A stretch of 64,000 nucleotides of DNA. It comes from Mytilus edulis. Lineage: Eukaryota. This document shows positions 20,501-62,800 of this stretch, piece by piece. A model generated the notes under the pieces. The model made no database searches. It was not told the DNA's origin and was given only the letters and a program-made list of their open reading frames with translations. A program made the translations under genes and the position numbers. Numbering within the stretch: the first letter of the stretch is position 1; the number at the start of each line of letters is the position of its first letter. The DNA is taken from NCBI RefSeq assembly GCF_963676685.1, contig NC_092357.1:21638001-21702000 (forward strand), read 5' to 3'.

Positions 20501-23500
20501 TGAAATTAATACAAAGAAATAAAAAAAAAACATGAAAAACTAACGACCGAGGAACACATACTAAATAACCGAATATGATAGCAGGTGCCCCTGAAGAATA
20601 AGTAGATCCTGCTCCTCATGTGACACCTCCTGGAAATTTGATATAGGAAAGTTTAGATAATAATATTTAAAGACTTTACAACCATTTCAGACATATCTAT
20701 TAAATGTCTATGCTATTCAACGCTGTATGCACGAGGACAGATTTGATACACACTTACAAATTTTGTGTTTGCTTGTTTATGGAGCCCCCTTAACCAACTT
20801 AAATTATGTATGCACTAGTATAAAGATGAAAAACTCTTATTTAGTGCCAACAGAATTTTACTTGAGTAACGAATAACCTTCTTTTCCCTTTTAGCCACAG
20901 TTACAAAACATCTGCAAAACATATTTTTGCTATCCTTGGGTCTGTAAGATTTTGGTTAAGAAATATATACCATTATGTTGTTATATCCAAAGTTCTCACA
21001 TTAATCTTTCAACTGTAAAAAAAACTGTGATTGTATTTTTTTAAACGACATAGTATGACATAAATTAAGGAAGTACAGGATTTACCACTTTTCAATTTTT
21101 ACAGCAAAATGCCTTCAGTGTGTACATTAAGGTAATATCTTTGGTTAGCTTGCTTGCTAGCTGAACCGTGAAATCATTTTTAGGTAAGGTATACTACCCT
21201 CCTGTTGGATTAGTGTAGTCCTACAGAAAGATAGGTTGGTTATCTGTCGGGTTAGTCTTCTATTTAAGGAAGGTAGTGTATCCAATTTAATAAGGACTTC
21301 AAGGTTCAGGTAGCAAGCAAGCCAACCAAAGATATTACATTTACCTACACATTCAAGGCATTTTGCTGTAAAACTATACATTTACCTGTTATGGTCCACT
21401 GAAGAATGATTTCTTCACTATCGATTGCTGTGATACTACTTGGTCCTTTCACAATTCGTGGTATTTGTTCCATTCCAGTTTCAATAGGTTGGTCAAAATT
21501 ACAAGGCTTGCTGAAACTTTGAAGAACATCTATATTTTGAAGGTTAATGCGTTCCACAACTCCATCAGTATCTGTAACAGTAAGATCAATCAACGATGGC
21601 CTCTTTGGTTTCTTAACGGTTTGTTCGTCCACAGACTCTGGGCTTAGAGTGTCGACTGATTCTGCAATTTGGGAAACGGTTCCCTCTTCGCTGATTGGGG
21701 ACAGTAAAATACGCGCATCCTTCCCAGGAACAACCGCCAGTATGTTGACGAAGTCATTGAAATCAACATCTTCTAATTCTGGCGGGGATGCATTCTGTAG
21801 TGTATTTGTTTCGGTTATAATACGGCCCATAAGGGACGCCAATGATTGGTTATCACCAATGAATAAAGTATTCGGCAGTGCGGGTCTTGTATCAGATAAA
21901 CTTTCTAGACCAATACTTTCGTCATAGATCTCGTCGGAAGCAGACATTGAATGCAGCTGTTGTAATTTTTCGATACCATGTCTTTTCTGAAACTCTTTAT
22001 CGTCGCATGTGATACCATGTTGTTCGTTATCACTAGTATCATTCATAATTATCTTATCATTAGATTTCTGGTTGTCATTCGCGCTATTTTTGTTGGTTTC
22101 CTTATCTTTTATCGTACTGTTCATTGGTGTATCTGATTCAACGTTTTTACAATCATTATCGTCTGAGAGTTCAGGGGACGTATTTTCTTCGACAATTGGT
22201 AGTTGTTGCTTTCTTGATGCGTCATTAATGACATATGTGCTCAGATCCAGTTGTTTCAGAATGTCACATCTTTCTTCCTCAATTTCTTCCACTGAAACAT
22301 CAGATTCGTCGTCTATGTATTCGTCGGAGGAATAAGGCGTATCTCTAAGATCAACTGTTAGCAGCTCTGATTCATCATTTTCATTATTTTTTCCTTGTTT
22401 TCTACAACTGTCATTTTCTTGTTCCCCAAGTGATCTAAATTTCTCATTATAATCCTGAAGGATTTTGTTACTTTGTTCAACTTGCCTTTGGTCATCATCT
22501 AGAGCAGAATGATTTGCTGGCATATCTTTACTTTTATCTAATAGTTGACCTTTCTTTTTATGTATATCACTGTCCTGACATTGATTGTTATCAAATTCAT
22601 TTTCACTCAATAACTCCATTTCATCAAGCGATTCGTTGATATCAATGTCAGCCAATATTTGCATTTTGTTGTCGTTGATAGAAAGAGATTTGTCGACATC
22701 AACATTAACCAATAGCTCACCCACCTGGTCTTTGTTAGGAGATTCATCAACATCAATATTCACAACAAGGCAATCAATTTTATCCTTTGTGTTGGTTGTG
22801 TCTGTTTCTATATCCAACAATATCGCACTTGATTTGTCCTTCTTATGAGATTCATCGATATCAATATCGGACACCAACTCACCAATTACATCTTTGGTAG
22901 GACATTTATCGTTATCAAAATCTGCCAATATACCAAATCTTTCATCCTTGTTAGACGAATCGTCGATATCAATATTTAACTCCAGTTCACCAATCTCATC
23001 TTTGGTTGGAGATTTGTCTTTATCAAAATCCGACAATATACCTATTATTTTATCATTGGTAAGAGAGTCTTTAATATCGATATCGGATACCAACTCACCA
23101 ATTACATCTGTGGTAGGATATTTATCGTTATCAAAATCCGTGGAAGTTCCAATGCCTTTATCATTGTTAGGCGATTCTTCAATATCGATATCAGACTCAA
23201 GTTCTCTTATCACTTCTTTGGTAGGAGATTTATCGTTTTCCAAATTCGACAAATTACCAATTTTTATATCCTTGTTAGGAGATTCATTGATACCAATATC
23301 AGACACCAGTTCACCAATAACATCTTTGGTAGGAGATTTATCGATATCAATGTCCGTCGAAATACCAACTCTTGTATTCTTGTTAGGAGATTCACCAATA
23401 TTGCTATCAGAAATTAGCTCAACAATCTCATCTTTAGTAGGAGATTTAGCGTCACCAAAATCGGACAATATACCAATCCCTTTATCCTTGTCAGGAGATT

Positions 23501-26500
23501 CATTGATACCAATATCTGACATCAGCTCACAAATTTCAACTTTGGTAGGAGATTTATCGTTTTCAATTTCCGTCGAGATTCCAATGTCCTTAGCCTTGTT
23601 AAGAGATTTTTCAACGTCAATATCAGACACCAACTCACCAATTATATCTTTGGTAGGAGATTTATCGTTATCAAAATCCGTCAATATACCAATTCTTGTA
23701 TCCTTGTTATGAGATTCGTCAAAATCAATATCGGACACCAACGCACCAATTACATCTTTGGTAGGAGATTTACCGATATCAATTTCTGTCGAAATACCGA
23801 TTCCTTTATCCTTGTTCAGAGATTTTTCGGTATCAAAATCAGACACTAATTCAGAATTAATACCCTCGTCATTCGATTCTTTTTCCTTGGTTTTGTACGA
23901 TTGGCGAGAATCTTCATCCTTGATTTCATTTTCTTGAATTAAGCTTGATTCTTTTCCATTTTGAATATCTTCGATGTGGTTGATAGTTTTTAGGTCGCCA
24001 ATCTTGCTAGGTTTCTCTCCAAATTTGCATAAGAAAAAAATCTCATCATCTATATCTTGATACGATAGAGCATCCAAGTTTGTCTCGGAAAGGCTATAAT
24101 CGTCACCACTTTCATACATGGACCAGCTTTCTGCCGACTGCAAAGAAAGTGTGTTACTCCTAGTTTCATCTAACATAGGTTTCTTTAAATGTAAATTCGG
24201 ACGAATCTCTGCTAAGATCTGTTGCTCTTCTTCGTCTGAATGAAACAAATGCTCTCCGTCATTGCTTCCATTGTCATTGGCCAAATCAACAATATCTTCT
24301 CCTGTGTTTTCGTCTGATTTAACGAACGTTATGTCCTTCGGTTTTTCGAAAGTCTTTTCCTCTAGAGTTGTTTTTTCGATGTCTCTACTACCTGTCTCTC
24401 GTAAGAGGTCAAGTTTTTCATACCCTGCAGCATTGATTTTATCATCACAACTCAAGTTTTCGGCAGTCTGGTTGTCTACCATTTCATCTTTTCCAGCAGA
24501 TTCACACATTTCATCTTTTCCAGCAGATTCACTAATTTCATCTTTTTCAGCAGAATCACACATTTCATCTTTTCCGATGCTGTCATGAATACCATTCCTG
24601 GCAAATTTACCGTCATCTGTTTTGTCTACATTCTGGTACGGAAAAGCATCAAAATTTGACTCTGAGAGTGTACAGTCATGACCACTGTCATAAACTGACC
24701 AACTTTCAGCCGAAAACGCGTTACTTGTGGAATCATCAAACAATTGCTTTTTCATGTGTAAGTTTGGACGAATTTCTTCCAGGATTCTGTGTTCTTCTTC
24801 GTCGGAATGAAAATTTTCCTCTCCATCATCCTCGCTGTTACTGTTTTCTGCTTCGAATTGAGGGTTCTTTTCTTCAATTGCATTTGGCTTTTGTTTTAAT
24901 TGATGATTTGTAATACCATCTATTAACCTGTCGTTAATATCGCTGGTTTTGGGATTTTGTACAAAGTTTTCAACCTCATTTTCATTCTCACATATTTGGA
25001 TAGGTTTGCAGTCAGTGCCTTCTTTATCGTCAACACCTTGATATCTACTTTTGTCAATGTAGTTTGAAGGCTGGTCGATATCCGATGTGATACTATTTTG
25101 ATCTTCCTTTTTCGAAGTACTTGAAGAAGTTTTGTTGTCGAAAGGGTCAACATTTCTACCAGATGGAGATACTTTATCATTGGGAATATTTTTCGTTGAT
25201 TCAAGCTCTTGATCATTTATTTCACGTCTTGTACATCTATCATCAAAAGGATCATCACAAGAGGGACTCTTTTTTGCACGTTTTTTATTATGTTGGTCTG
25301 AATATTTTCGAGATGACCTTCGTTTGTCTCCCATATGATCTACATCTTCATCTGATGATGGAGGAGAATAATCATCGTCTGCGATTCCGCTATCTCCTGT
25401 TAACCTCCTCGCGCGGTTGAATTCGTCATCTGCTTTAAGAAAACTTGCAAGCTCCTCCACAGTATCTTCCAGTCCGACTTGAAGATCTTCATCGTCACTC
25501 ACTTCATCGATAGATATTGTTACCTTACTTCCTTTGTTTTCATTTTGCTGTTTAATGGAACTACTCGACGAAAAATGACCGCTATCTGTTTCAGCTAAAT
25601 CTACGTCTTGTGCTTTTCCACTGTCAGCGATAGCTTTTCCGTCTAAATTATCGGTTTCAAGCATGGTGTCATTATTAGTAATATTATTAACTGACATATC
25701 AATCTTATTCTGGTCAGAACCAGGAAAGGAGATATTTCTCTTTCCATCTTCGACCGTAGCACTTCCAGTAGAAAGAACCTTCATAGATATCTGGCGGATA
25801 CCGTTTGCCGATAAAGAGCGATCAATTTGATCTATGCTAAGAAAATCATCCAAGTTTTCTGTTTTATCCAAGTTAGCTAGAACCAATGGTCTTTTGTTGC
25901 TATCTTTTCTGGAACCAGATTGATCGAAGGTCATTCTGTGGACTGTCAGTGTGTCATCAGTCTTGTCAGTATCTGTACCTACAAATAAGTGAATGCGTCA
26001 ATTAAATGTTTTATTGTCTTCAAGAGTCATTTAACCTTGACTTTTATTTTTATTTTACAGTCGGCATTCTTGTGTTTAAGTATATAAATTCTTCAAAGTA
26101 TAATGATGTACACGTGAGTAGTATAATATCTGTGATTTTTTTTTTAAATAATTGTTTTTTTGGAGCAGGGAAAATGTTGTAAATGGTAATCAGCTCAATT
26201 ATTTGTAAGCATGTTGTACTTTAAAGGTTAATAAAAAAAAATGCATCGATGTTAAATATAATTTTGTACAATTTGCAAATTTCGTAATGTAATTATATTA
26301 CCAGTTCTCAGAAAAAGGAAAAATGCTTTCCTCACAAGCCATGTGTATTATTCTTCTTTATAAAAAAATATTAATTTCCAGTCGGTTGGGCCCAAAATGT
26401 TTCTCAATCAATAGTTAAATTTATTTTCAGGCGTCGTGCTGTCTTGTCATAGTAACCTTAAATTAAGACAACAGTAGTAAACCGGTGTTCAAAAGTCATA

Positions 26501-36087: not shown

Positions 36088-38282
36088 GAGAATCTCAATA
36101 GGACATTTGAGCGAAAAAGAAAAAAGCACATAGGGTCATTTGAGCGCCGACTTCATAGGACATTTGAGCGCCGGGATATTAACCTTACCTGAGTTTTCAG
36201 ACAGGACATTTGAGCGAAATTTTCCCTGATAATTTTACACGAAGTAATTCGACCGGTTCTGGCTGGTTTATGTAAGTGAAATCCTAAGTTGATCTCTATT
36301 TACCAATCAATTCTACTATAATTCATTGGCTATGCAAATTTTCTTTGTTCTAAAATTCTTATATATATATCTATTAAGTGAAATGTCCCTTGGCACTTGA
36401 AATCTTAATACTAATAATACATGTACGTGTTAAAATGGATATTATTTTGACCGAGACTAATAAGGGAAAAAGAAGCCTTGTTTGTGACAGTTTCCGATAT
36501 AGAGTGGACAAAACACTAAAAGGAGAAGAAATATCCTGGAGATGTACAGTAAGTACCTTTTTTTACAAATTTAATGTTAATGTAAACTACTTGTTCGTCT
36601 GTTACGCTTCAACTTCCATAACTTCTTTTAATTTTGATTTATATCTATATCATTATATGTCTATCTTATACCTCCTTTAGATTAATTTTTTAACACATTT
36701 GAATATAAGCTACCACATATAGGGTTAGGTTGATTTTCTAGGCACTTTACAATATTCATACAATACACTGTAAAAATTGTGCTTAGAGCCTAAACATGTT
36801 TAGGAAAATGTTTAGAAGCTAAACACATAAATGTCTGTGGTGTTCCCATTCTAAACATGTTATGAATTTCATTTCATTTCATTTCATACTACATCTTATT
36901 TTTATGTCTTGCAATAGCAAATGAAAAAGCATTTAAACACTTCAATTGTATTTGTCCTTTCAATATTTTTCAGGCAAAAGGTTGCAAAGCAAGACTGAGG
37001 ACGGATTGTACCGGAACCGTTATAATTCAACAGAAAAATACTCATAACCATGATACCAGTGATCGTGACAATGAACGTCACTTGCTGCGGGTACGATCAA
37101 AAAGAAAAGCGGATGATGTTATGTCCCTCTTGTATTCTGCTTACTTCCTGGAAAGTCTGAAGAAATTTACGTGAATTGCTTTTCCTCAATTGTCAAGCTA
37201 TGTTCCGATCAAGGTCACACACTTCAACCGAAAGCAGTACACGTCGATTTTGAAGAACGGGTAATGAAAGTTATGAAGGATTTTTTCCCGTCTATAGAGA
37301 TCAAATGCTGTAGGTTTCACTTAGGCCAAGCCTGGTGGCGAAAAATCCAGAAAGTTGGACTTAGTCAACAATACAAAGAGCTTGATTCAGACATTAGTAA
37401 ATGGCTTAAAGGGATTTTTGGGATAGCCTTTTTAGCTCCAGACGAAGTAGCCGACTGTTTCGTAGAAGATTTTATGGCCGTTGTACCTAACGACAAGCCT
37501 TGTATAGAATTTGCAGATTACCTGACTGATACTTATATAACAGATGAATCGTTATTTCCCCCTCATCTCTGGGCCGAAGTTCCATCCTCGTTAAAACGTA
37601 CTAACAATGGGCCCGAATCATTTCATGCCCATTATAACGAGCAGTTCTATCACAGTCATCCATCAATTTATATTTTCCTTGACACTATTATCAAATTGCA
37701 ATCTGTGACTTACATAAAAATTCGGAGTTTGAACATTGATGCACCGCAGAGCCGAACAGAAAAGGAGAAGGAACAGAATCTCCGGGATTTGCATTCGAAA
37801 TACTGCCAGCAGGAAATTACGAGGGATTTTTATGTCAGAAGCCTGGGATATAAGTTCCAAGCCCGAACAGACTTGTAAATAATGCCGTTGCCGAGTTTTA
37901 TGTTTTATGACAGTGCTTTGTTTTTAGTGCTTTGTTTACAATTAAAAGATGTTTTAATCTTTTTGTTGGTAAACTCCTGTTTTATGACTGTGCTTTGTTT
38001 TTAGTGCTTTGTTTTTTACAATTAAAATATGTTTTAATCTTTTTGTTGGTAAACTCCTCATTTAATGAACTATATTCGTAAGAAAATGTGGTATGATTGC
38101 CAATAAGACAATTCTCTATCCAAGACTTGTTTTCGCTCAAATGTCCTACGCTTATTCTTATTTTTGCTCAAATGTCCTAAAATTTAGGCGCTCAAATGTC
38201 CTATACTTTGGCGCTCAAACGTCCTTTTTTTTCGCTCAAATGTCCTGTCAATGCGCTCAAATGTCCATTGCTGTAAAATCTC
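36088..38282 (+). mobile_element. MULE (Mutator-like) DNA transposon, internally deleted
   Basis: TIRs built of repeated AGGACATTTGAGCG (left) and CGCTCAAATGTCC (right); encloses a FLYWCH plus MULE transposase gene; no clear TSD, so the ends are approximate. Confidence 0.85.
36435..37878 (+). pseudogene. FLYWCH-MULE transposase, spliced (36435-36548, then from 36974), with a deletion and frameshift at about 37118
   Basis: Exon 1 MDIILTETNKGK...WRCT|gtaagt; exon 2 AKGCKARL...HNH; then a frame jump to YVPLVFCLLPGKS...VDFE...CRFHLGQAWWRKI...RTNNGPESFH. The segment carrying the first catalytic Asp (DGTF-type) is missing. Confidence 0.85.
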
Positions 38283-50887: not shown

Positions 50888-53800
50888 CTATGAAATAGAA
50901 ATACAAATGTCAATATTAATGTACAATACAGTGTTGACTGATGTACCCCTATTGTGAAATCATTACCTTTTAGGCATTTTTGTCAATACAATTAAATATT
51001 ATGCGCCTTACCTACAAGTGAAAGGTTTAGCTAGCTATAAAACCAGGTTAAATCCACAAATTTCTAATAAAGAACATGTCTGTACCAAAACAGGAATGGG
51101 ACAGTTGTTTTTCAATCGTTTTATGTGTTTGAGGTTTTGATTTTGCCATTTGAAAACAAATTTCCCTGTTTAAAAAGTTAGGGCCAATTTGTCCGGATTT
51201 TTTTTCACAGAAAGGCCAATTTCAAAAAGTACCAACAGAATAAAATTTACTATAAAAACAAAAAATAAAAAAAAATGCTTTTGATCAATATCTCGATTTA
51301 CATATATTATGATACGTGTGATAAATATTTAATCTTACCCTCAAAAAGGATGAAAGTCCAATATGCGGAATTTGTTTTTAGGTGGGAAATAAAGAGAATC
51401 CCCAAAGAAGGACATTTCACACCAAAAAAAAAAGTTATGTTTTTCGTAACTGTGGCAATTTATACTATATTTTCCGTCAGATATGAAATTGGTTGAGTGT
51501 GTCCTTATTATATAAAAAACAACTTTTTAATGGAAAAATTGTAACATCTCTAAATTGTGCCGATATAGCTCCTTATTAAGAATATTATGGTCAAGTATCG
51601 CGATGGCTCAATCAGTAGAGCATAGAACTACAAATGACATATTGTTTTCAAGCTAGGGTTCGAATCTCGCTCAGACTTTTTGCTTTTATTTGTTTAATGT
51701 TTCTATCATATTTTTTCGGATGTTTGCTTAATTCATAGAGTCATTTAGGTTCATTTTGACTATATAGTATAAATCATTTTATTAAAAAAAATACTGTATC
51801 GCTTATTGTGTGCATTCCTATGACTGCCCATACTCTTGACTTATTTTCTATTCATGTTTCCATTGATAACATATATGCAAAGAACAACTGCCGTCAAACT
51901 GAAGAAGGTGGCTATAAATAACCAATAACACGAGAATTGATTCTAAAGCAATGAATCCCAAATGTTGCATGTATAATTAATATACACATAACATAAAATA
52001 AGGTCATTGTATACAAGTTTCAAAACAACACAAACAATTTTTCGAAACTTGATGCTTATATTAGGTAAGATGGAGATGTTCGAGTATTCCTATCGTGTGT
52101 ACAATGTACATAGTGCAGTCAACAGCAATCAATTTTGTCGCCAATTCACTAACTGTGTAGATACTAGTACTGAAATTCTTACCACCGTCCCTACACCGGT
52201 AACTAAGTCATCAGAAAATAAGACAACACCACAGGACAAATCAATTACACTACAAATCGTGATTGTATACGTAAAACATCAAGAAGCTGTTGCATCTGTA
52301 TCGCAACGAAGGGCCGATTTGTTAAAATGCCAGAAAAGGCCATATAACATGTGTTAGTAACACAAGGTGTTCTATGGCCAGCTGATGTAAGCTGTTCTCC
52401 GGTTACTATATATATAATCTTATCTTATAGACGATAAAACATTAAAAGACCAGGACAAATACAGATATACATATATTAAGAATGTGAAAAACAACATCCC
52501 ATTTGAATTTGTTCAATATTATTTGATTCTTGACAAGTTACGTTGTATGGTACCTTATGCGCATAAAGGGTGTTAAAAATTAGATACAATCAATATAAAA
52601 CAATCAATAGTCTTGGCCTTGATTTTTTGTAAGAATACCTGTTCAAGGTAGGAAAATAGATGATGTGACGTATTTCAATGTACTATTATTAGCATATATC
52701 GGGCTATTTAAAACATTTACCTATCTTATCGAATGAAATGAATTGAGGGGAAATTGGCCATACCTCTTTTCCTTTGAGTTGGGTATTTTTGTTATTTTAC
52801 AATAATGTCTATGTAAAAAGTATCCGGTTGTATTTCATTGTCTCCTTTTGAATTGCATCTGCACATCATCATTATTTGAGAATAATTCATTCTATGAAAA
52901 GCTAGTACAATTTATTAATTAAGTAATACATAAGATTAAGTTTATTGTAACCCAGCATGTCTCTACAGACACGGACAAAGGAAACACGTTTGGATATTTT
53001 AACACCGTACGATGGTGTTAATGGAGCACCAGCGTCCATAAAACAATCACAATAAGACATTTTTTTTCCCGTTTTGTTGTAAATTTGTGTGTTACATTCG
53101 TCGTGTAAAACTAAAAAATCGACGTTTAGAAGCGGACAGTTATTGCTTTTAAGTACAGTTGGAAAACTTCAGGAGTATAATAAGATTTATAAACTAGAAT
53201 TGCCATTGCAAGCAATAGCGGATGTCACCCTGGTCCACCAATTGCCACTAAACAGCAGCCATGGTAACGGCAGCCATTTTGGAAATTCCAAAGTTGTATG
53301 CCGCATCTAGATTTACAAGTTTACCTTTCTGCAACGTTTTCAAAATTTTGCTATTTTTGAACAGTTTCCATGGCAACATTTGAAAATTCCAAAGTCATAC
53401 TGCTGCTTCATATTGTGCTCCCAATAATATTATACCATTATATAACATCTAACGGCCGTAGAATTAATCTAAATCTAATGTTCTAGAATGTTCCATCACA
53501 TTTTCACATTTTTGCTGTTTCCATGGAAATGGAAGAAATATTTTAAATTCCAAAGTCAGGTGCACAACTACAGATGGTGATCAACATTATGTTATAGTTT
53601 CATCAATATTGGTCCATTCAGTTCCGAGAACTAAGCTGGACAAAAAAGTGTGGAATAAGAATATGAAAAAAAGAATTGTACAATAACAATATGTCATCCG
53701 ACCATGTCAGGGTGACATAATTATTTGATGAAATAATATATATCATGAAGAAAGTGTGGTTGTTTTATCCGTTTAAACATTGAACTTGTTGAATTTAGGC

Positions 53801-56800
53801 GTGTCTTTATAAGTGTAACCGTAAGCTGAGATTCAAAACAGTACAGTAACAAATTTGCTTTCAAAGTGGCGGAATTGGCGCCTAAAGAAATACTAACAAC
53901 CTGTCGATTAACTAATTTTGAGAAATTTACATTAATGTTGGCATCGAAAAAAATATAAGAAGCATTATTGTTTTTTTGGTCTGCAATATATTGTTCGAAT
54001 GTTTATACTTACCAAAGTCTATTGGGTTGCCTCTGACCACCTAAATAAATGAAAATAAAGCAAAAACATGTCAGAAAAACAAAAGGGTGTCTGGAATTTT
54101 ACTGGATTAATAGTCATCTTAAAGGAGTAAGCTCTGTAAGGGTCATATTTGGCCCCCATTAAAAGTTCAATGCTACAAGATAAGAAAATGTTCAAATTTG
54201 ACTAAAATATTCAATGGACATTTACCCATTCTCATTGTTTCTCGATAAAAATCAAAAAGAGTTTGTTACTCTTGTTACTATTTGTGACGTCATGAATAAA
54301 AGGCAAGAACGTAAATTTACAACAAATTTACTTATTTCCTGTTTACTCAAAGTATTATTCATTGTAATTTTGGTCAATAAATCCCAATTGGAAATTTAAT
54401 CTAACAAATGGGGCAATTTTAGGGTCTTGTCGAACCTACTCATTCTTTTTGCATAGGAAAATTTGTGTACACGACTAACAAAGCAAAATTTCTTTAAAAA
54501 ATGTCTTTAAAAAGACAAAAATGATAAGATACTAGTAGTTAAAAAAAAGGTCTTCAAATTGAAGAATATATGAATGACTAGAAATATACCTTACCTTGCA
54601 AAGAGTGTGAATGCTCCGTATTTTACCAATTTCGACTGCTTTTCTGATGTCATCAAATGTTATATGGGTACCCACGACGGTTTTGTGGAGTGCCTCAAAT
54701 TTCAATCTTTCTGGTTCTTCTCCAAATGTAACATACAGATCATCCCATGGTTGATAGTCCATCCCAAGATGCATTGCCAACTCTTTTGTTTCGGTTATGC
54801 TGTACTGCATTGACAATCGATGTAGATGAATATCTGAGGGAATCTGTTCTAAAAACTCAGTATCGGTTACTGAAATGTTCATAGAAAAAAATATTATCAA
54901 TATTTAAAAGGAATATTAAAAATATAAAGAAGTAGATTTGAAACAATTCTGAATGAGACAACTATTCACAAGAAACCAAAACTTACACATAAATTAACTA
55001 CTATAGGTCACCGTAAGGCCTTTAATAATGAGCCAAAAAAGCACATTTGATAGGATCTTATAATGTCTAATTATAAAATGTTAGGCTTAAAAAAAATCTA
55101 TACGAAATAAGGAATATAACAGTTGTATTCCAGTTGAGCACGTTAATTTTTCATGTTTTATGGACTATAAATAAGTAAATATAAGATATGTTGTATACGA
55201 TCTGAATACCGACAATGATAATGGGTCTGATAAAAATGATGGGTTTGCACGAAAAAATCGATTACATAACTATGATAACATTTTGTCAATTTCTTAGTTG
55301 TTCAACAGTAGAAAAGGTAAAACCATATTCCTCAATGCAATCATACACCGATTTATAAAGTCTTCAAACCTTTTCATCATAAACAATGTAGTTTTTTACT
55401 GATCGCTTTATACACATTCAAAACAACTGCACCGTATTTCAAATTAGGACTATCGACATTAATTGATAAAAAAAATGATACACCTAAAGAATATAAATTA
55501 ATAGAAGTAATGCATTATAAACTAGTGGTATTCCTGCGTCATGTCAAAGCATTTTATCACATTATTACAGATAACAAGAATATAAAAAAATCATGCAGAA
55601 CATCTTTTTCTCTCTCCTTGGAATGAGGATCAAATAATATAGACTCTTCCTTCATTAGATAACGTTGTTTTGTCCTCATTTAAGATTAAACTGTTTAAAA
55701 ACAAAAATGTGTAAACAATTTTCACTAAATAGCAATCATGCAATAGATAAATCATACAGCAAATACGTCACCTGGGCATGATTTTCCACATTGAAATTCG
55801 TCCTAAAATATACATTAACACCGAATAAGTTAATAAGGAAATATGAGTAAGAATAAACAAAAGGGTAATCAGATATAAGGACACAGAGCATTTGGACAAG
55901 AAATAAACAAAACTCACTTTACAGTAGGCTTATGATTAAGTTTATTCGAAAGTAGAAAAAATAAATTCCGGATTCCGGAGCAATGTACGGTTTGCAAGAT
56001 TTTTGGGAAACATGTATTTCAGGTAAATATTCTGGGAATTCTCGCTACATTGAAGACCCATTGGTTGCCTTACGGAGTTTAGTATGACGTCCATTATCAC
56101 TGTACTATTATGCATATTTTAGGGGCCAGCTGAAGGACACCTACGGGTGCGGGAATTCTCGCTACATTGAAGACCCATTGGTTGCCTTCGGCTGTTGTTT
56201 GCTCTATGGTCGGGTGGTTGTCGCTTTGACATAGTCACCATTTCCTTTCTCAATTTTATTTTTTACAGAGTTTGTCTTTAGTGCCGTGTGGAGACAGTAG
56301 AGTGCCTCCCCGTGCTTAAGGTTTATGCTCTTATATTATACTAGATTATGGAGTGTGTGTCCGAGCGAGAACTTCTCTATGTTCATTACTTTAGGAATAT
56401 CTATCAAAAAGTAGTATTTTAATATTCAGCCCCATTCATCTATTTAGTCAGACGTCAGTCGCTACCTTGATATACCCTTTCTTTTTTAAATTTGTCGGGT
56501 AACTTATGACAATAAGCATTTGACGTCTTGAGCCGAACAGTTTTATCATTTTTACACAATTTAATCTACTGTGTGATGGTTCATATTCTGGACGCCAGTC
56601 TTTGCTCCTTTGTAATAAATCTACATACCAAAAAACAAATATGAAGCTTAGAAATGGAAAAATATTAAATACTAAACTCGTTCAAAGGGTATCTACACGT
56701 CTCAATCTTCAGAATCGCTTATCTAAAAATACTACTATAGCTAACGTTTTTAACAATAAAAATCGTGGTTACCCTTCTATCGATAAGTGTCATGCCAAAA

Positions 56801-59800
56801 AATGACTTACGTGTCCCCGTCTTTCCACCAACAATACAGTAAGGTCCACATTTAATGGTCGCACATTTTCTCTAAATTTTGAAACTGATATTACTTGAAA
56901 AACAAACAGTATTATTTATTTACTCACATGAAACAAACCGGGATGCGGTATTCAGTACGTAGGTGAAACTGGGCGATATTTATCTAAACGCACGCAAGAA
57001 CACCTGTATCGTTTTAAAAGACCCAATAAATTCAAAAGTATCATTTATCAACATCTTAAGAAGCACAGTCATCCTATTAAATATTTAACAGTTCAACCTT
57101 TAGAAGTAGTAAATAAGCAGCCTGGTGAATCTCATTCCAAGTTTGTACGATCACGAAAAATAAATGAATTAAATTGGATTAAAAAATTACAGACAGTCTA
57201 CCCTCTCGGTCTTAATGATAATATCATGGGAATTGGCAATATATCAAGAACCGATTCTGTTAACATTTTGGATATAGTTTCTAAAACTGTTCGTAAAAAT
57301 CGTTCTCATGGACGCAGAAAAAATCGCAATCAAAGAAAATTTCGGACTAACCATACAAATATTTCGGACCTAATTTCCATTTCAAAAAACAACGGCAGAC
57401 ATTATCTGTTAACCAAGCTTTGTTCTTTACCTATAAATAAATTAAATAAAATTTTAGAGGATTGCAACACAATTTCATATTACAGTCCTAAGTATGAAAT
57501 TGTCCAAATTATAATGGCATATTGTTATTCTAAACTGTTTCCAAAAATTGATCGACCTGAAGATCATAAAAAACCTTTTATTAAAATAAAGTATGTCAAT
57601 AAAGGTTTTGATTTTGTAAATATTGCCGGCATTTTTAACGACCATTCTGTTAAAGACCAAATTCCTGGATATTTTGATAATACTGAACTCCCTCTCATTT
57701 GTTATATTTACAAGAAATCTACCCGAAAATATGTGTTTAATTATAGCCAATTGTGTAAAGATGTAAATATCACTGAAAATACACCTATGTCGTGTAATTG
57801 CAGTAATTCAGAATACACCTATGGACCAATTTCCCATGTTATAACAGGAGACCTTAACATCGTTCGCGACCGAGAGTTAAAATCATTCCTCAGTAAAGGA
57901 CCTAAATATCGTCCCCCGTCAACTATTAACTGGAATGAGTGTCGTAATATCATCAACGACTCACTCCGCGCCTACTGTTTGAAATGGGTAAAACGGGAAA
58001 AAGCTGACAAAAAATCTTTGGACTCTTTTATTAATTCAGTAATGAAGATAGTTGATATTCGAATACAACATTTTAAAGAACATTTTACCCTCAACAAAAA
58101 CTATAAAAACCCTATTTCGCGTATCAAAAATAAACTAACAGAACTAGCCAAGGAATTTGTTTTTGTCCCGGCTGATAAAGCTGCTAATAATATCATTATT
58201 GTTTGACGTAAATTTTATATAGAGGTTCTGCAAAAGGAAATCACGAATTCACCAACATTCCAACTGACTTCATTTTCAGAAAACGACATCTGTAACAAAC
58301 ATAAACTTTTAGCTACTTCTTTACAAGCAGAACCAAACACAATGAAAGTCCCAACTATGTACTGGCTTCCGAAGCTGCACAAAAAACCTTACAAATATAG
58401 ATTTATTTCATCTTCCAGCCATTGTTCAACTACTAAATTGTCTGTTTTACTTACTAGTACACTTGGTACAATAAAAAACCTGATAATAAATTGTTCAAAT
58501 AAGGCCTTTGAAAATAGTGGAATTAATTACTTTTGGAGTGTCAAAAACTCGTTGGAAGTACTTGATAAATTGCATGCATATATTGGTGATTTTGAATCTG
58601 TTCAAAGTTTTGATTTTTCTACCCTATATACCACTTTGCCTCATATTCTTATTAAGAAAAAATTCACATCCCTAATTAACTGGGCATTTAAAAAGTCGGA
58701 ATGCGAGTACATATGTTCAAACTCTTTTAGATCATTTTTTAGTAGCAATAAACAAAAGAACTATGTCAATTGGACATGCTTTGATACTATTTATGCACTT
58801 GAATTTTTACTTGATAACATTTTTGTTCGCTTTGGAGATTCCGTATATCGTCAAGTTATTGGAATTCCAATGGGGACTAACTGTGCACCACTTATTGCGG
58901 ACCTGTTTTTGTATTGTTATGAGTTACAATTTATGACTAAAATTAGCAAAGACCCATCAAAACAACATTTGATACAAAAATTTAACAATACTTTTAGATA
59001 TTTGGATGATATATTGGCTCTAAATAATGACGACTTCAGTATGTATACTAAAGAAATTTATCCTGTAGAACTTACTTTAAATAAAGCTAATGATAACAAT
59101 GACCACTGCCCTTTCCTCGATCTTGATATCTATATCATAAACGGGAAGCTTAATACAAAAATTTATGATAAAAGAGATGATTTTTCATTTCCTATTGTTA
59201 ATTATCCATTTTTAGATGGTGACGTTCCCTTGTCACCATCTTATGGTGTTTATATATCTCAACTTGTACGATTCGCTCGTGTATGTAACAATGTATTAGA
59301 TTTTAGCGAGAGAAATTTATGTATTACTGAAAAATTATTACACCAGGGTTTTCGATATCACAAACTGGTCAAAACATTTACTAAATTTTATCACCGGTAT
59401 AAGGAAATAATTCGTAAATATAACTCAACATGCAGACATCTTATACGTTCAGGTATTTCACATCCAAAATTTTATGGAAATATTCTTTATAAAGCACAAA
59501 AATGTCAGTATTCTCCTCAGAAACTAACAAAACCTTTAAATAGACTTATTAAAAGGGGATATAGTTACGATACTGTTGTCAGGTCATTAAAGATTGCATA
59601 TTTTGGCTTTAACATTGATTCACTGATAGGGTCTTTGCATCGGAACTAAACACATTTACTTCTAAAAAAACAGTTGTTGGCATGACACGGGTTATGTTCT
59701 TCTCATATATTTTATGATAGTATGATACTAAACCCCTAACGGGAGGGATTGTACCTGATATTCATATGATGAAGACATAATCTTTCAATCAGTTTAATTG

Positions 59801-62800
59801 AGGTCTGGAGCTGGCATGTCAGTTAACTGCTAGTAGTCTGTTGTTATTTATGTATTATTGTCATTTTATTTATTTTCTTTTGTTACATCTTTTGACATCA
59901 GACTCGGACTTCTCTTGAACTGAATTTTAATGTGCGTATTGTTATTCTTTTACTTTTCTACATTGGCTAGAGGTATAGGGGGAGGGTTGAGATCTCATAA
60001 ACATGTTTAACCCCGCCGCAATTTTGCGCCTGCCCCAAGTCAGGAGCCTCTGGCCTTTGTTAGTCTTGTATGATTTTAAATTTTAGTTTCTTGTGTATAA
60101 TTCGGAGTTTAGTATGACGTCCATTATCACTGTACTATTATGCATATTTTAGGGGCCAGCTGAAGGACACCTACGGGTGCGGGAATTCTCGCTACATTGA
60201 AGACCCATTGGTTGCCTTCGGCTGTTGATTGCTCTATGGTCGGGTGGTTGTCGCTTTGACATATTCACCATTTCCTTTCTCAATTTTATTTTCATTATAT
60301 CTCGAAACTAATAATCCTTGTCGAAAGGTTATTGGCCTGTATATAAAAAGTACTGTCAGTATCCCATATAGAAGAGGTAGGAAGACTTTATGCACAAATT
60401 TAAGATACTTCTTTTTCTTATATTGATATTTACCAACAGCCTAATGTCTTATTTCAATCTAAAAGATTGTAAATTTTTTCTTTTTACATTTTGGAAACAG
60501 GACTCACTTATATCTTCTAGTCATATAAATTTATGTGGTACGATGTGTTGTTATTTAAAAAATCATGATTGACCAAACATATAAAACAGAAAAGTTGACC
60601 ATGCATATATTATATGTTTAATGACATAATAGGAATGAGCTACGCTATTAAGATAACATTATCAAAATATTGAACCCTTTTTTTTTATTTAGTAGTCATC
60701 ACTATGTTAAAATCTAAACATAATTTACATACACAACTTTGAATTTGTTTACTTATTATGTTTAACTTATACAACTTTTAAAGAGTATTAGGCAAAAGCA
60801 TTGGAAATTTTGACTCCGGAAAGTTCTTCGATTTCCTATCGTATTTAGCCTTTTAACGTTTTTGATTTGAGTGTCACTAATGAGGCGGTTGCAGACGAAA
60901 CGTGGTGTACACAATTATAATCCAGGTATCGGTGATGTTGTATTCTTTTGCCGAATATACGAGACACGTTCAAAGTTGAAGATAGGTAAATAAAAATACA
61001 ACAGTTCTTTTGCATTTGCCTAGGACTTTAGTTTGAAGTTAATTCTATGTTAAAATTTCTTAATTTCTTAATTTTGAAAATGAATATGTGCCAAGTATTT
61101 AAGATTATTATTCAAAACACATCTATCATGGTATAACCTTAGACTAAATGGTTTAGTGAAAAAATAAATTTTTACAGATATCCATCAAAAAAGTTGAAGA
61201 ACATCAGAAGTTTTTAACGTATTTATAGAAGTTATGTTTTAATTGTATTTACCTTTTGTATGGCCCACGACGACATCATGTCTTTGGTGTGCTCGATTCC
61301 GTGTTTTGGACATATCCATGAACCGTCTTGTTGTTGAAGTGTTGATATTGGCAATAGACAAGGATCGTCAGATGAACTGCAACACAAACTTAGATTGAAA
61401 AAGCTTTTGCTGGCAACAAAATCTGTACTGCTGGTTTTGACGTACAGCTGACTTATTTTCTCAAGAGCAACAGTTAAACATTCACGAATACTAGATGCAA
61501 GATCTCTCATAATGAGTGTTCGATTCCGCAAGTGAACAAGACGGACAACTATGATTTCATCATCACAGTTTACACACATATCTAGAGATTGGTCAATATT
61601 AAAAACAGCTGACCTATGAAACAATAATTCATCATCCTTCTGTCCGTATGTTTTAACTGCAAAGATACTCAAGCAATAACTGATGAATCGAAAGGATAAA
61701 GCCGGTGGTATCATTGAGGAAGAGTAGCTAAAAGCTATAGCGATATTACTCTGAGTGAATGTCGGCGACATAAGATAACCTGTTGTGTCATTGGTTCGTA
61801 CCATGCTGGCAACGTAGTAGAATTCAGCTGGTATACGTGTTTGTGACTTATCATATCGTTTGGGTTCAACTAGTATATCAAGATGTGTCATGACTCCTAA
61901 TAAATATTCCTTATGATCTTTAAACTTTATGTACTTTTTCTTCTTCCAGATTTTTTCTATGGAAGTCTTCTCTATTATGCCTTTCTTACTCATCAAATCC
62001 CAAGATTTCAGTCTCTTTGTGTCACCTTTACAAAAGCTTCTATCAGTAACGATCGATTTAAAGGCATCAATCAGATGTGTCGGCGACAGAATGATGTGTT
62101 GATCCAAATTAACCTCATCAAAGTATAAGATCCGTCCAACAGAGTGCTGAAATTTGAGAAATACTTTCAATTCTTCTTCAGTTAATGGTCGAACAGGTTG
62201 AAGGGAATTAATTCTCTCCATTTGCTCCATTGTTATTGACAGATTGTTTCTACTCAGAAGTGACTCGAATTCCCATTCAAGAGGAATGAAGCATTTGGGA
62301 AGATGCTGTCCCCATGTCGGTTGCATCATTGCCTGCTCAGTTATAACCTTTTTGATTTTCGCCATTTCTGGATCACGTTTGTTCTTTGTATTTACAAATA
62401 TTTGCTCTTTAATTACTAGATGCGACAGTAATGGACTTCCAGAAAACATCTTCTCTATTTCACGAAATAATTTGCGACGTCTTGCTTCAACTTCCATCTG
62501 TAAACAAACCTGTTGTCTTGAGTTTTGTGAATATATAGAATACCAAACTGTTATACATGTAGCTGAATAATACATACTAGTAATGAAATGATATCTACTT
62601 GCGTATTTCATTAATAGTTCTATAAATGTAATATGTAGTTTATAATAAACACACTTTAATATATACATTTTCTTTTTCTGCATTTTAGTGCAGACTAGAA
62701 CAATGTTACTGCAACTGTTTTATACGAAAATTTCTTTTTCAGTAAATTTAAAACAATATAGAAGCCATTTGTTTATATCAATCTGTCGTTGATGTTGCTA

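Follow-up and report, generated by a model that had tools for sequence, protein, structure and literature searches.

A predicted SECIS hairpin behind a four-UGA Naiad retrotransposon frame in the mussel Mytilus edulis

How can a retrotransposon make its reverse transcriptase (RT) when four UGA codons cross the reading frame, and could a single hairpin behind the stop codon be the answer? The question is raised by a stretch of 64,000 nucleotides from Mytilus edulis (contig NC_092357.1, positions 21,638,001 to 21,702,000; hereafter the window), where a sequence-only reading had described one canonical SECIS element for four UGAs in the 3' UTR of a retroelement. We conclude that, very probably, one 3' UTR SECIS recodes all four UGAs to selenocysteine (Sec), yielding a full endonuclease/RT protein of 1002 residues.

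The hairpin belongs to a full unit of ~4030 bp (56263..60292, + strand), whose 3' end other copies share at 60288-60292. Directly upstream lies a pseudo-LTR (pLTR) of 190 nt (56073..56262, +), a 5'-truncated copy of 60103-60292 with 99% identity, and a further 38-nt duplicate, of 60181-60218, sits at the 5' junction (56034..56071, +). All of this fits the Naiad Penelope-like elements of Craig et al. 2021 (PMC8557442), as do a body within 3.4-4.4 kb, 5' truncation, tandem copies (here spaced ~4031 bp), a GIY-YIG domain at the N-terminus with CX2-5CxxC and CCHH motifs followed by the RT, and the CxC, DKA and KR-block landmarks. As that description requires, no hammerhead ribozyme match was found in 52-64 kb. 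Judged by its sequence, the element is a Naiad-clade Penelope-like retrotransposon that was recently amplified. A mytilid mussel host is also indicated by 14 myticin matches above the cut-off, myticins not being known outside mussels. The window copy probably lies antisense in an intron of a host gene: an exon-like ORF with a COR-A domain (61253..62719, - strand; Pfam PF16095, E 1.8e-11) and an exon-like frame at 54595-54869, downstream of it in the host gene direction, would belong to that one gene.

With TGA read through, the Naiad ORF spans 1002 codons (56641..59649, +) and closes with a TAA at 59647-59649. It runs from an N-terminal Zn-finger/GIY-YIG endonuclease through a KR-rich block, the CxC and DKA motifs to the RT, and its start at 56641 is supported by a stop that lies six codons upstream in subfamily B, a sister ~91% identical to the window element. 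A possible fifth UGA ahead of this start (~56521) was rejected because the frame is lost there in subfamily B. Scanned directly with Pfam, the window ORF gave no real match to its domains; several of its 44 homologues carry Pfam marks for GIY-YIG (PF01541) or RT (PF00078). When 43 of these were aligned, the weakest left out, each of the four in-frame TGAs (at 56803, 56896, 56929 and 58204 on the + strand, the four that had been counted earlier) fell in a cysteine column, counted over ungapped homologue rows. These are codon 55 (56803..56805), the CX2-5CxxC finger's second cysteine (27 of 28 rows have Cys); codon 86 (56896..56898), the Cys ahead of GIY-YIG (35 of 35); codon 97 (56929..56931), the first CCHH Cys (36 of 37); and codon 522 (58204..58206), the Cys after DKA (40 of 41). 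The CxC motif (C385/C387) is kept in all 42 ungapped rows.

The frame is under purifying selection on either side of these UGAs, with dN/dS of ~0.11. Between subfamilies A and B, dS is ~0.30 and dN ~0.033, and subfamily B against the window element gives 0.09 for codons 1-97, 0.11 for codons 98-522 and 0.11 for codons 523-1002. With TGAs at conserved Cys columns and selection acting across them, the proposal that the hairpin serves a multi-UGA retroelement ORF is borne out. All four TGAs are kept in the subfamily-B copy L178, and all three endonuclease TGAs in 143 of the best-scoring 150 genome matches (among 2,984 candidates). In fact, all 150 scored RT matches are identical in protein (100%), which indicates that TGA-bearing copies amplified recently.

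Forty nucleotides downstream of the stop TAA begins the type II-like SECIS element (59689..59783, +), recognised by its Rfam SECIS_1 match, fold z and motifs. On the + strand we recover every part named by the sequence-only reading, namely the long helix I, the internal loop, the AUGA/GA core, a helix II with G-U pairs, an AAA and an apical minihelix. Helix I pairs 59689-59709 with 59761-59783, ending 3 bp past the limits given before; it lies with the internal loop beneath the core, and 96% of its cells are paired. In the core, AUGAU (59714..59718, +; AUGA at 59714-59717) sets its UGAU (59715-59718) opposite the UGAU at 59756..59759 (+), so that the hairpin has the RUGA..GA core with non-canonical quartet of eukaryotic SECIS elements. 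Helix II (59719-59729 with 59745-59755) forms nine pairs over 11 positions, three of them G-U, with two mismatches, A59719-C59755 adjoining the core and A59727-G59747. Eleven nucleotides above the core stands the unpaired AAA (59730..59732, +), followed by a minihelix of 3 bp, CCC/GGG (59734-59736 with 59741-59743).

The whole hairpin folds at -26.7 kcal/mol (z = -2.85), a stability equalled by one shuffle in 200, and the fold is more stable in the versions of subfamily B (z -3.87) and of copy L115 (z -5.38). Folded by themselves, helix II and the apex do not stand out (z -0.51), and the opposite strand over 59680-59790 gives z -1.52. Checked against the Rfam SECIS_1 model (RF00031), the window copy is matched at 59704-59768 with E 0.0079 but scores 30.9 bits, below the gathering score of 35; two of 15 scanned loci pass, with 41.4 bits (L091, a copy of sister subfamily B) and 38.3 bits. 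This score below cut-off and the A-C mismatch adjoining the core speak against the SECIS reading, and the word canonical, although every motif is there, was slightly strong for this copy. The count of one SECIS holds: the match at 59704-59768 is the sole SECIS_1 match across 52-64 kb, and no second one was found in the element. A pattern search for AUGA..AA..GA returned five candidates in the element; a SECIS-like fold occurs only at 59689-59783, and a second candidate is this hairpin again, read in an overlapping register. From sequence and fold, this hairpin is predicted to be a real SECIS of known kind.

How would it act? If established eukaryotic Sec biology applies, the SECIS core would bind SBP2, and eEFSec would bring Sec-tRNA to the UGAs, whose distance of 1.5-2.9 kb upstream of the SECIS should be enough for recoding. 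Because three UGAs fall in the first 97 codons and the fourth precedes the RT, failed recoding would give no RT, and transposition would then depend on selenium. An RT that needs four Sec insertions would thus link transposon mobility to selenium supply, and standard annotation would label such UGA-bearing ORFs broken. The host genome carries tRNA-Sec genes, with five matches over the cut-off, and ARAGORN confirms the two that were checked. These matches lie at C7:74.8-75.4 Mb and C1:49.15 Mb of genome G000; four score equally within 560 kb and may be either amplified genes or assembly duplication. RNA reads over the element, from four runs whose species label matches only a minority of the genomes carrying it, fall on both strands (with uncalibrated strandedness), are 3'-biased and in 35-41% of cases continue into other sequence; a strand bias in run X22 was accordingly set aside. 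None of the records listed as carrying the element is catalogued as RNA.

The SECIS is also found far beyond full-length copies. A 34-nt pattern of its core occurs exactly 4,762 times across the genome (2,430 forward, 2,332 reverse) and not once when reversed as a control; the first 100 matches listed comprise 58 of B-type, 37 of A-type and 5 that are mixed. We sampled 60 copies, namely the first 62 core matches listed on contig C1 minus two neighbours in a duplicated run. Fifty-eight of these are 5'-truncated, and seven lack ORF sequence altogether, starting at 59668-59694. Both halves of the earlier expectation are therefore seen: short 3'-end copies lose the SECIS (when loci were selected through the 3' end, no more than 11 of 29 in one set and 7 of 19 in another extended to it), and longer truncated copies scatter it. 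We envision this scattering as a by-product of 5' truncation, and most SECIS-bearing truncated copies are likely inert. The hairpin had also been placed outside the duplicated pLTR part, which is correct for the window copy (56073-56262 = 60103-60292) but not for L156, L158 and L162, whose upstream partial copies contain the SECIS. Truncation recurs at 59690-59694, the foot of helix I (L190, L191, L197, L230, L231, L052, L060, L149), which may be chance, some of these loci being duplicates of each other. Searches from L033 and L077 for a more distant SECIS-bearing family gave only decayed members of the same one. A genome-wide RF00031 search found one match, a Naiad copy, with 130 of 47,381 candidates scored, and so is no census. 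Type I hammerhead matches in repeats flanking two copies (L091:2372-2415 and 2672-2715; L136:2982-3025) are probably mussel retrozymes, a group treated in PMC7229834.

Some 225 nt downstream of the SECIS, the 3' UTR holds a twister-like motif (59965..60055, +) of P5-type permutation, with a predicted cut between U60008 and A60009. It has the L1 words UAA and GAGGG, the L4 word GUCCCAAG, stems P2 and P4 and pseudoknots T1 and T2; its P1 stem is mispaired, a stem reported as dispensable in PMC5408937. An Rfam scan for twister gave no match. In loop L4 the window copy has changed from U to C at 60033; just 2 of 220 matches show this C, and they are presumably the window copy itself. Over 27 hand-picked related rows, covariation gives 25 two-sided cells against 10.8 in shuffles (reached in 0 of 500), for a structure that was drawn from the window itself; this backs the motif in a supportive way only. 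At the predicted cut, 60009, 47 molecules end at a depth of 175 in one RNA run of four (X23, strandedness uncalibrated), and these ends may derive from another repeat. Such a repeat, bearing a twister-like motif with a different P3 loop, occurs in L023, L025, L195, L210, L227 and L229. Judged strictly, the motif is intact in 42 of the 60 sampled copies and apparently broken in 18.

In PMC8501958 (Table 1), the twister variants of Schistosoma Perere-3 retrotransposons share the same domain words (UAA, GC, GUCCCAAG, GAGGG then UUGA) and an imperfect P1. They differ in place: Perere-3, a non-LTR element, carries its twister at the 5' end, whereas the mussel motif is P5-type and belongs to the 3' UTR of an element of Penelope-like kind. 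The word twister is absent from the main text of PMC8557442.

A bolder proposal couples the SECIS to this predicted self-cutter, in which case the element's own RNA would serve as a selenoprotein message of unit length that lacks poly(A) and is possibly circularised, rolling reverse transcription would produce the pLTRs and the 4031-bp tandems, and the ~4,800 scattered SECIS elements could be used by hosts only where the cutter is broken. We regard this coupling as speculative and rather unlikely; were it true, the mussel genome would be a natural test bed for the origin of new selenoproteins.

Does the element then also work as a SECIS donor, host genes gaining selenoprotein status from its scattered copies? 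The idea is stated in PMC8557442, which proposes that 5'-truncated Naiad copies could give SECIS elements to host 3' UTRs, and copy numbers make it testable in one genome: with 4,762 core matches, and 7 of 60 sampled copies free of ORF sequence from 59668-59694 onwards, the raw material is there. Upstream of the sampled SECIS copies, Pfam was run on 133 sense ORFs with a minimum length of 78 codons, and no UGA-ending, Pfam-recognisable host ORF was found in sense among 60 of 4,762 copies, a search made without gene annotation and hence of low power. The credible host ORFs end instead in TAG, as for Usp (present twice, in a segment that is duplicated), or in TAA, as for actin and one AAA_12 exon, and the Usp and actin ends lie 2.3-3.3 kb from the SECIS copy with AATAAA in between. 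Upstream matches to PTPS, DUF1450 and Tipalpha are likely spurious, no stretch passing alone. The donor reading is further weakened by the twister-like motif, for its predicted cut would strip the poly(A) tail from a host mRNA that carried a sense copy, which makes easy donation less likely, and by the window copy, which is antisense to the host exons. We consider working donation improbable, and the suggestion that copies enter host 3' UTRs found no case in this small sample. Next to a Usp gene we noted a 237-nt fragment that is nearly SECIS only (59694-59930), without the twister-like motif (L190:4981-5217, and L191); it lies in sense 3.3 kb past the last Usp exon, which ends in TAG, and is duplicated 8.3 kb apart.

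Is the SECIS itself under selection? Among copies, the motifs persist as had been expected: the 3' UGAU is intact in all 60 sampled copies, found with a search pattern that did not include it, and the five differences between subfamilies A and B in the 65-nt core leave the motifs untouched. Three of the five lie in helix II, where each keeps or makes a pair, and the core has changed less (5/65) than synonymous sites have (p 3e-4). The covariation that had been named as a check did not appear: pairs over 54 distinct copies show 5 two-sided cells against 8.4 expected from shuffles. Changes that recur mostly affect one side of a pair and leave it intact, in copies that are close relatives with post-insertion decay. 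Conservation, moreover, is not specific to the hairpin. In 18 older copies the SECIS differs by 7.7% and the adjoining 3' UTR by 7-8%, and between A and B the figures are 7.7% and 4-5%; with the UTR alongside changing equally little or less, the constraint is not SECIS-specific. The evidence for selection on the SECIS itself is therefore mixed, and what speaks for a function of the hairpin is the UGA evidence together with its motif anatomy rather than covariation. The 3' UTR past the SECIS (59784-60102, +) differs between A and B by the same 4-5%, whereas the final 190 nt differ by 15% and synonymous sites by 25%, and its first part, 59784-59900, has no stable fold.

An evenly conserved UTR and a hairpin whose covariation stays at the level of shuffles are also what might be seen if the family were non-autonomous, the TGAs being true stops, a Cys-type Naiad (a kind published for Mytilus in PMC8557442) mobilising it in trans, and the hairpin serving as a relic or an RT-recognition structure. 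A frame beyond true stops would hardly retain an omega of ~0.11 downstream of all four TGAs, the stops are invariably TGA and invariably in Cys columns, and the hairpin has every SECIS motif at the right spacing, so that we hold trans mobilisation to be highly improbable. Highly improbable too is SECIS-independent leaky readthrough of UGA as Cys or Trp, which could appeal to the few copies with TGC, TGT or TGG at UGA sites and to a homologue with Trp at site 522, but which, over four UGAs in succession, would leave almost no product, ignores a SECIS and tRNA-Sec genes that are both present, and leans on copies that ranked first because the query carried C.

Recoding of the four UGAs through the SECIS thus stays our reading, and the variant copies deserve a description of their own. 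Subfamily-B copies L142-L145 and L172-L174 have TGC, TGT, TGG, CGA or AGA at UGA sites, and codon 97 is TGC or TGT in four subfamily-B copies. The copies do not demonstrate a replicating Cys97 sub-lineage: three have TGC in common and no other private site, and the ranking favoured Cys. In L172 and L173, sites of A and of B form a mosaic, which suggests a third subfamily or template switching. Two relatives, P0001 (79% identical) and P0002 (46%), start downstream of the endonuclease, as if upstream stops cut them; at site 522 they have Cys and Trp, respectively.

How new is such an element? Neither one SECIS for four UGAs nor the scattering of SECIS copies, both put forward by the sequence-only reading, is novel, as both are in PMC8557442. 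There, four Naiad families of clams and spiders are described with three or four UGAs (four each in Naiad_Scon and Naiad_Sdum) and predicted type I SECIS elements. The mussel element resembles Naiad_Scon (Sinonovacula constricta) and Naiad_Mmer (Mercenaria mercenaria) in its N-terminal GIY-YIG and RT, in the UGAs that stand for the Cys ahead of GIY-YIG, the first Cys of CCHH and the Cys that follows DKA, and in a SECIS soon after the stop. By eye, from the text of the supplement, its endonuclease is nearer to these two than to the published Mytilus Naiads. It differs from them in its mussel host and at the second CX2-5CxxC Cys, which is UGA here and Cys in the clams. That site is UGA in the spider Naiad_Sdum, which likewise has four UGAs plus a SECIS; for Naiad_Sdum and Naiad_Smim, however, no UGA is listed at the first Cys of CCHH, and their IFD is reduced. 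The mussel set thus combines sites of clam and spider Naiads. The SECIS differs too, with an apical minihelix (type II-like) where the four published ones are type I, and a start 40 nt after the stop compared with 1-21 nt. Naiad_Mgal and Naiad_Mcor, of the same clade and from Mytilus hosts, have no UGA or SECIS note in the metadata of the supplement and by eye differ from the window element in their N-termini, which points to the window element being a different family.

Outside transposons, vertebrate SELENOP also recodes several UGAs in one ORF, and PMC5133445 confirms its two SECIS elements, as had been stated; it has ten UGAs for these two, whereas the mussel Naiad has four for one. A search of the open-licence literature turned up no report of a selenoprotein Naiad from mussels. 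What is new is the mytilid mussel host, the type II-like fold, the combination of clam and spider UGAs and the large, young copy number: a new host for selenoprotein Naiads, with a mechanism already published. Selenoprotein-coding transposons are thereby extended from clams and spiders to mussels, in thousands of copies and through a very recent burst.

Elsewhere in the window, an acidic, repeat-rich frame of 1561 codons belongs to a host gene (21345-26030, -) and has one TGA, near the start of the stop-to-stop frame. Decayed RT-like frames of a different Penelope-like element lie at 52900-54000 (-). Broken reading frames at 36794-37878 (+) look like what we take to be the remnant of a MULE/FLYWCH-type transposase.
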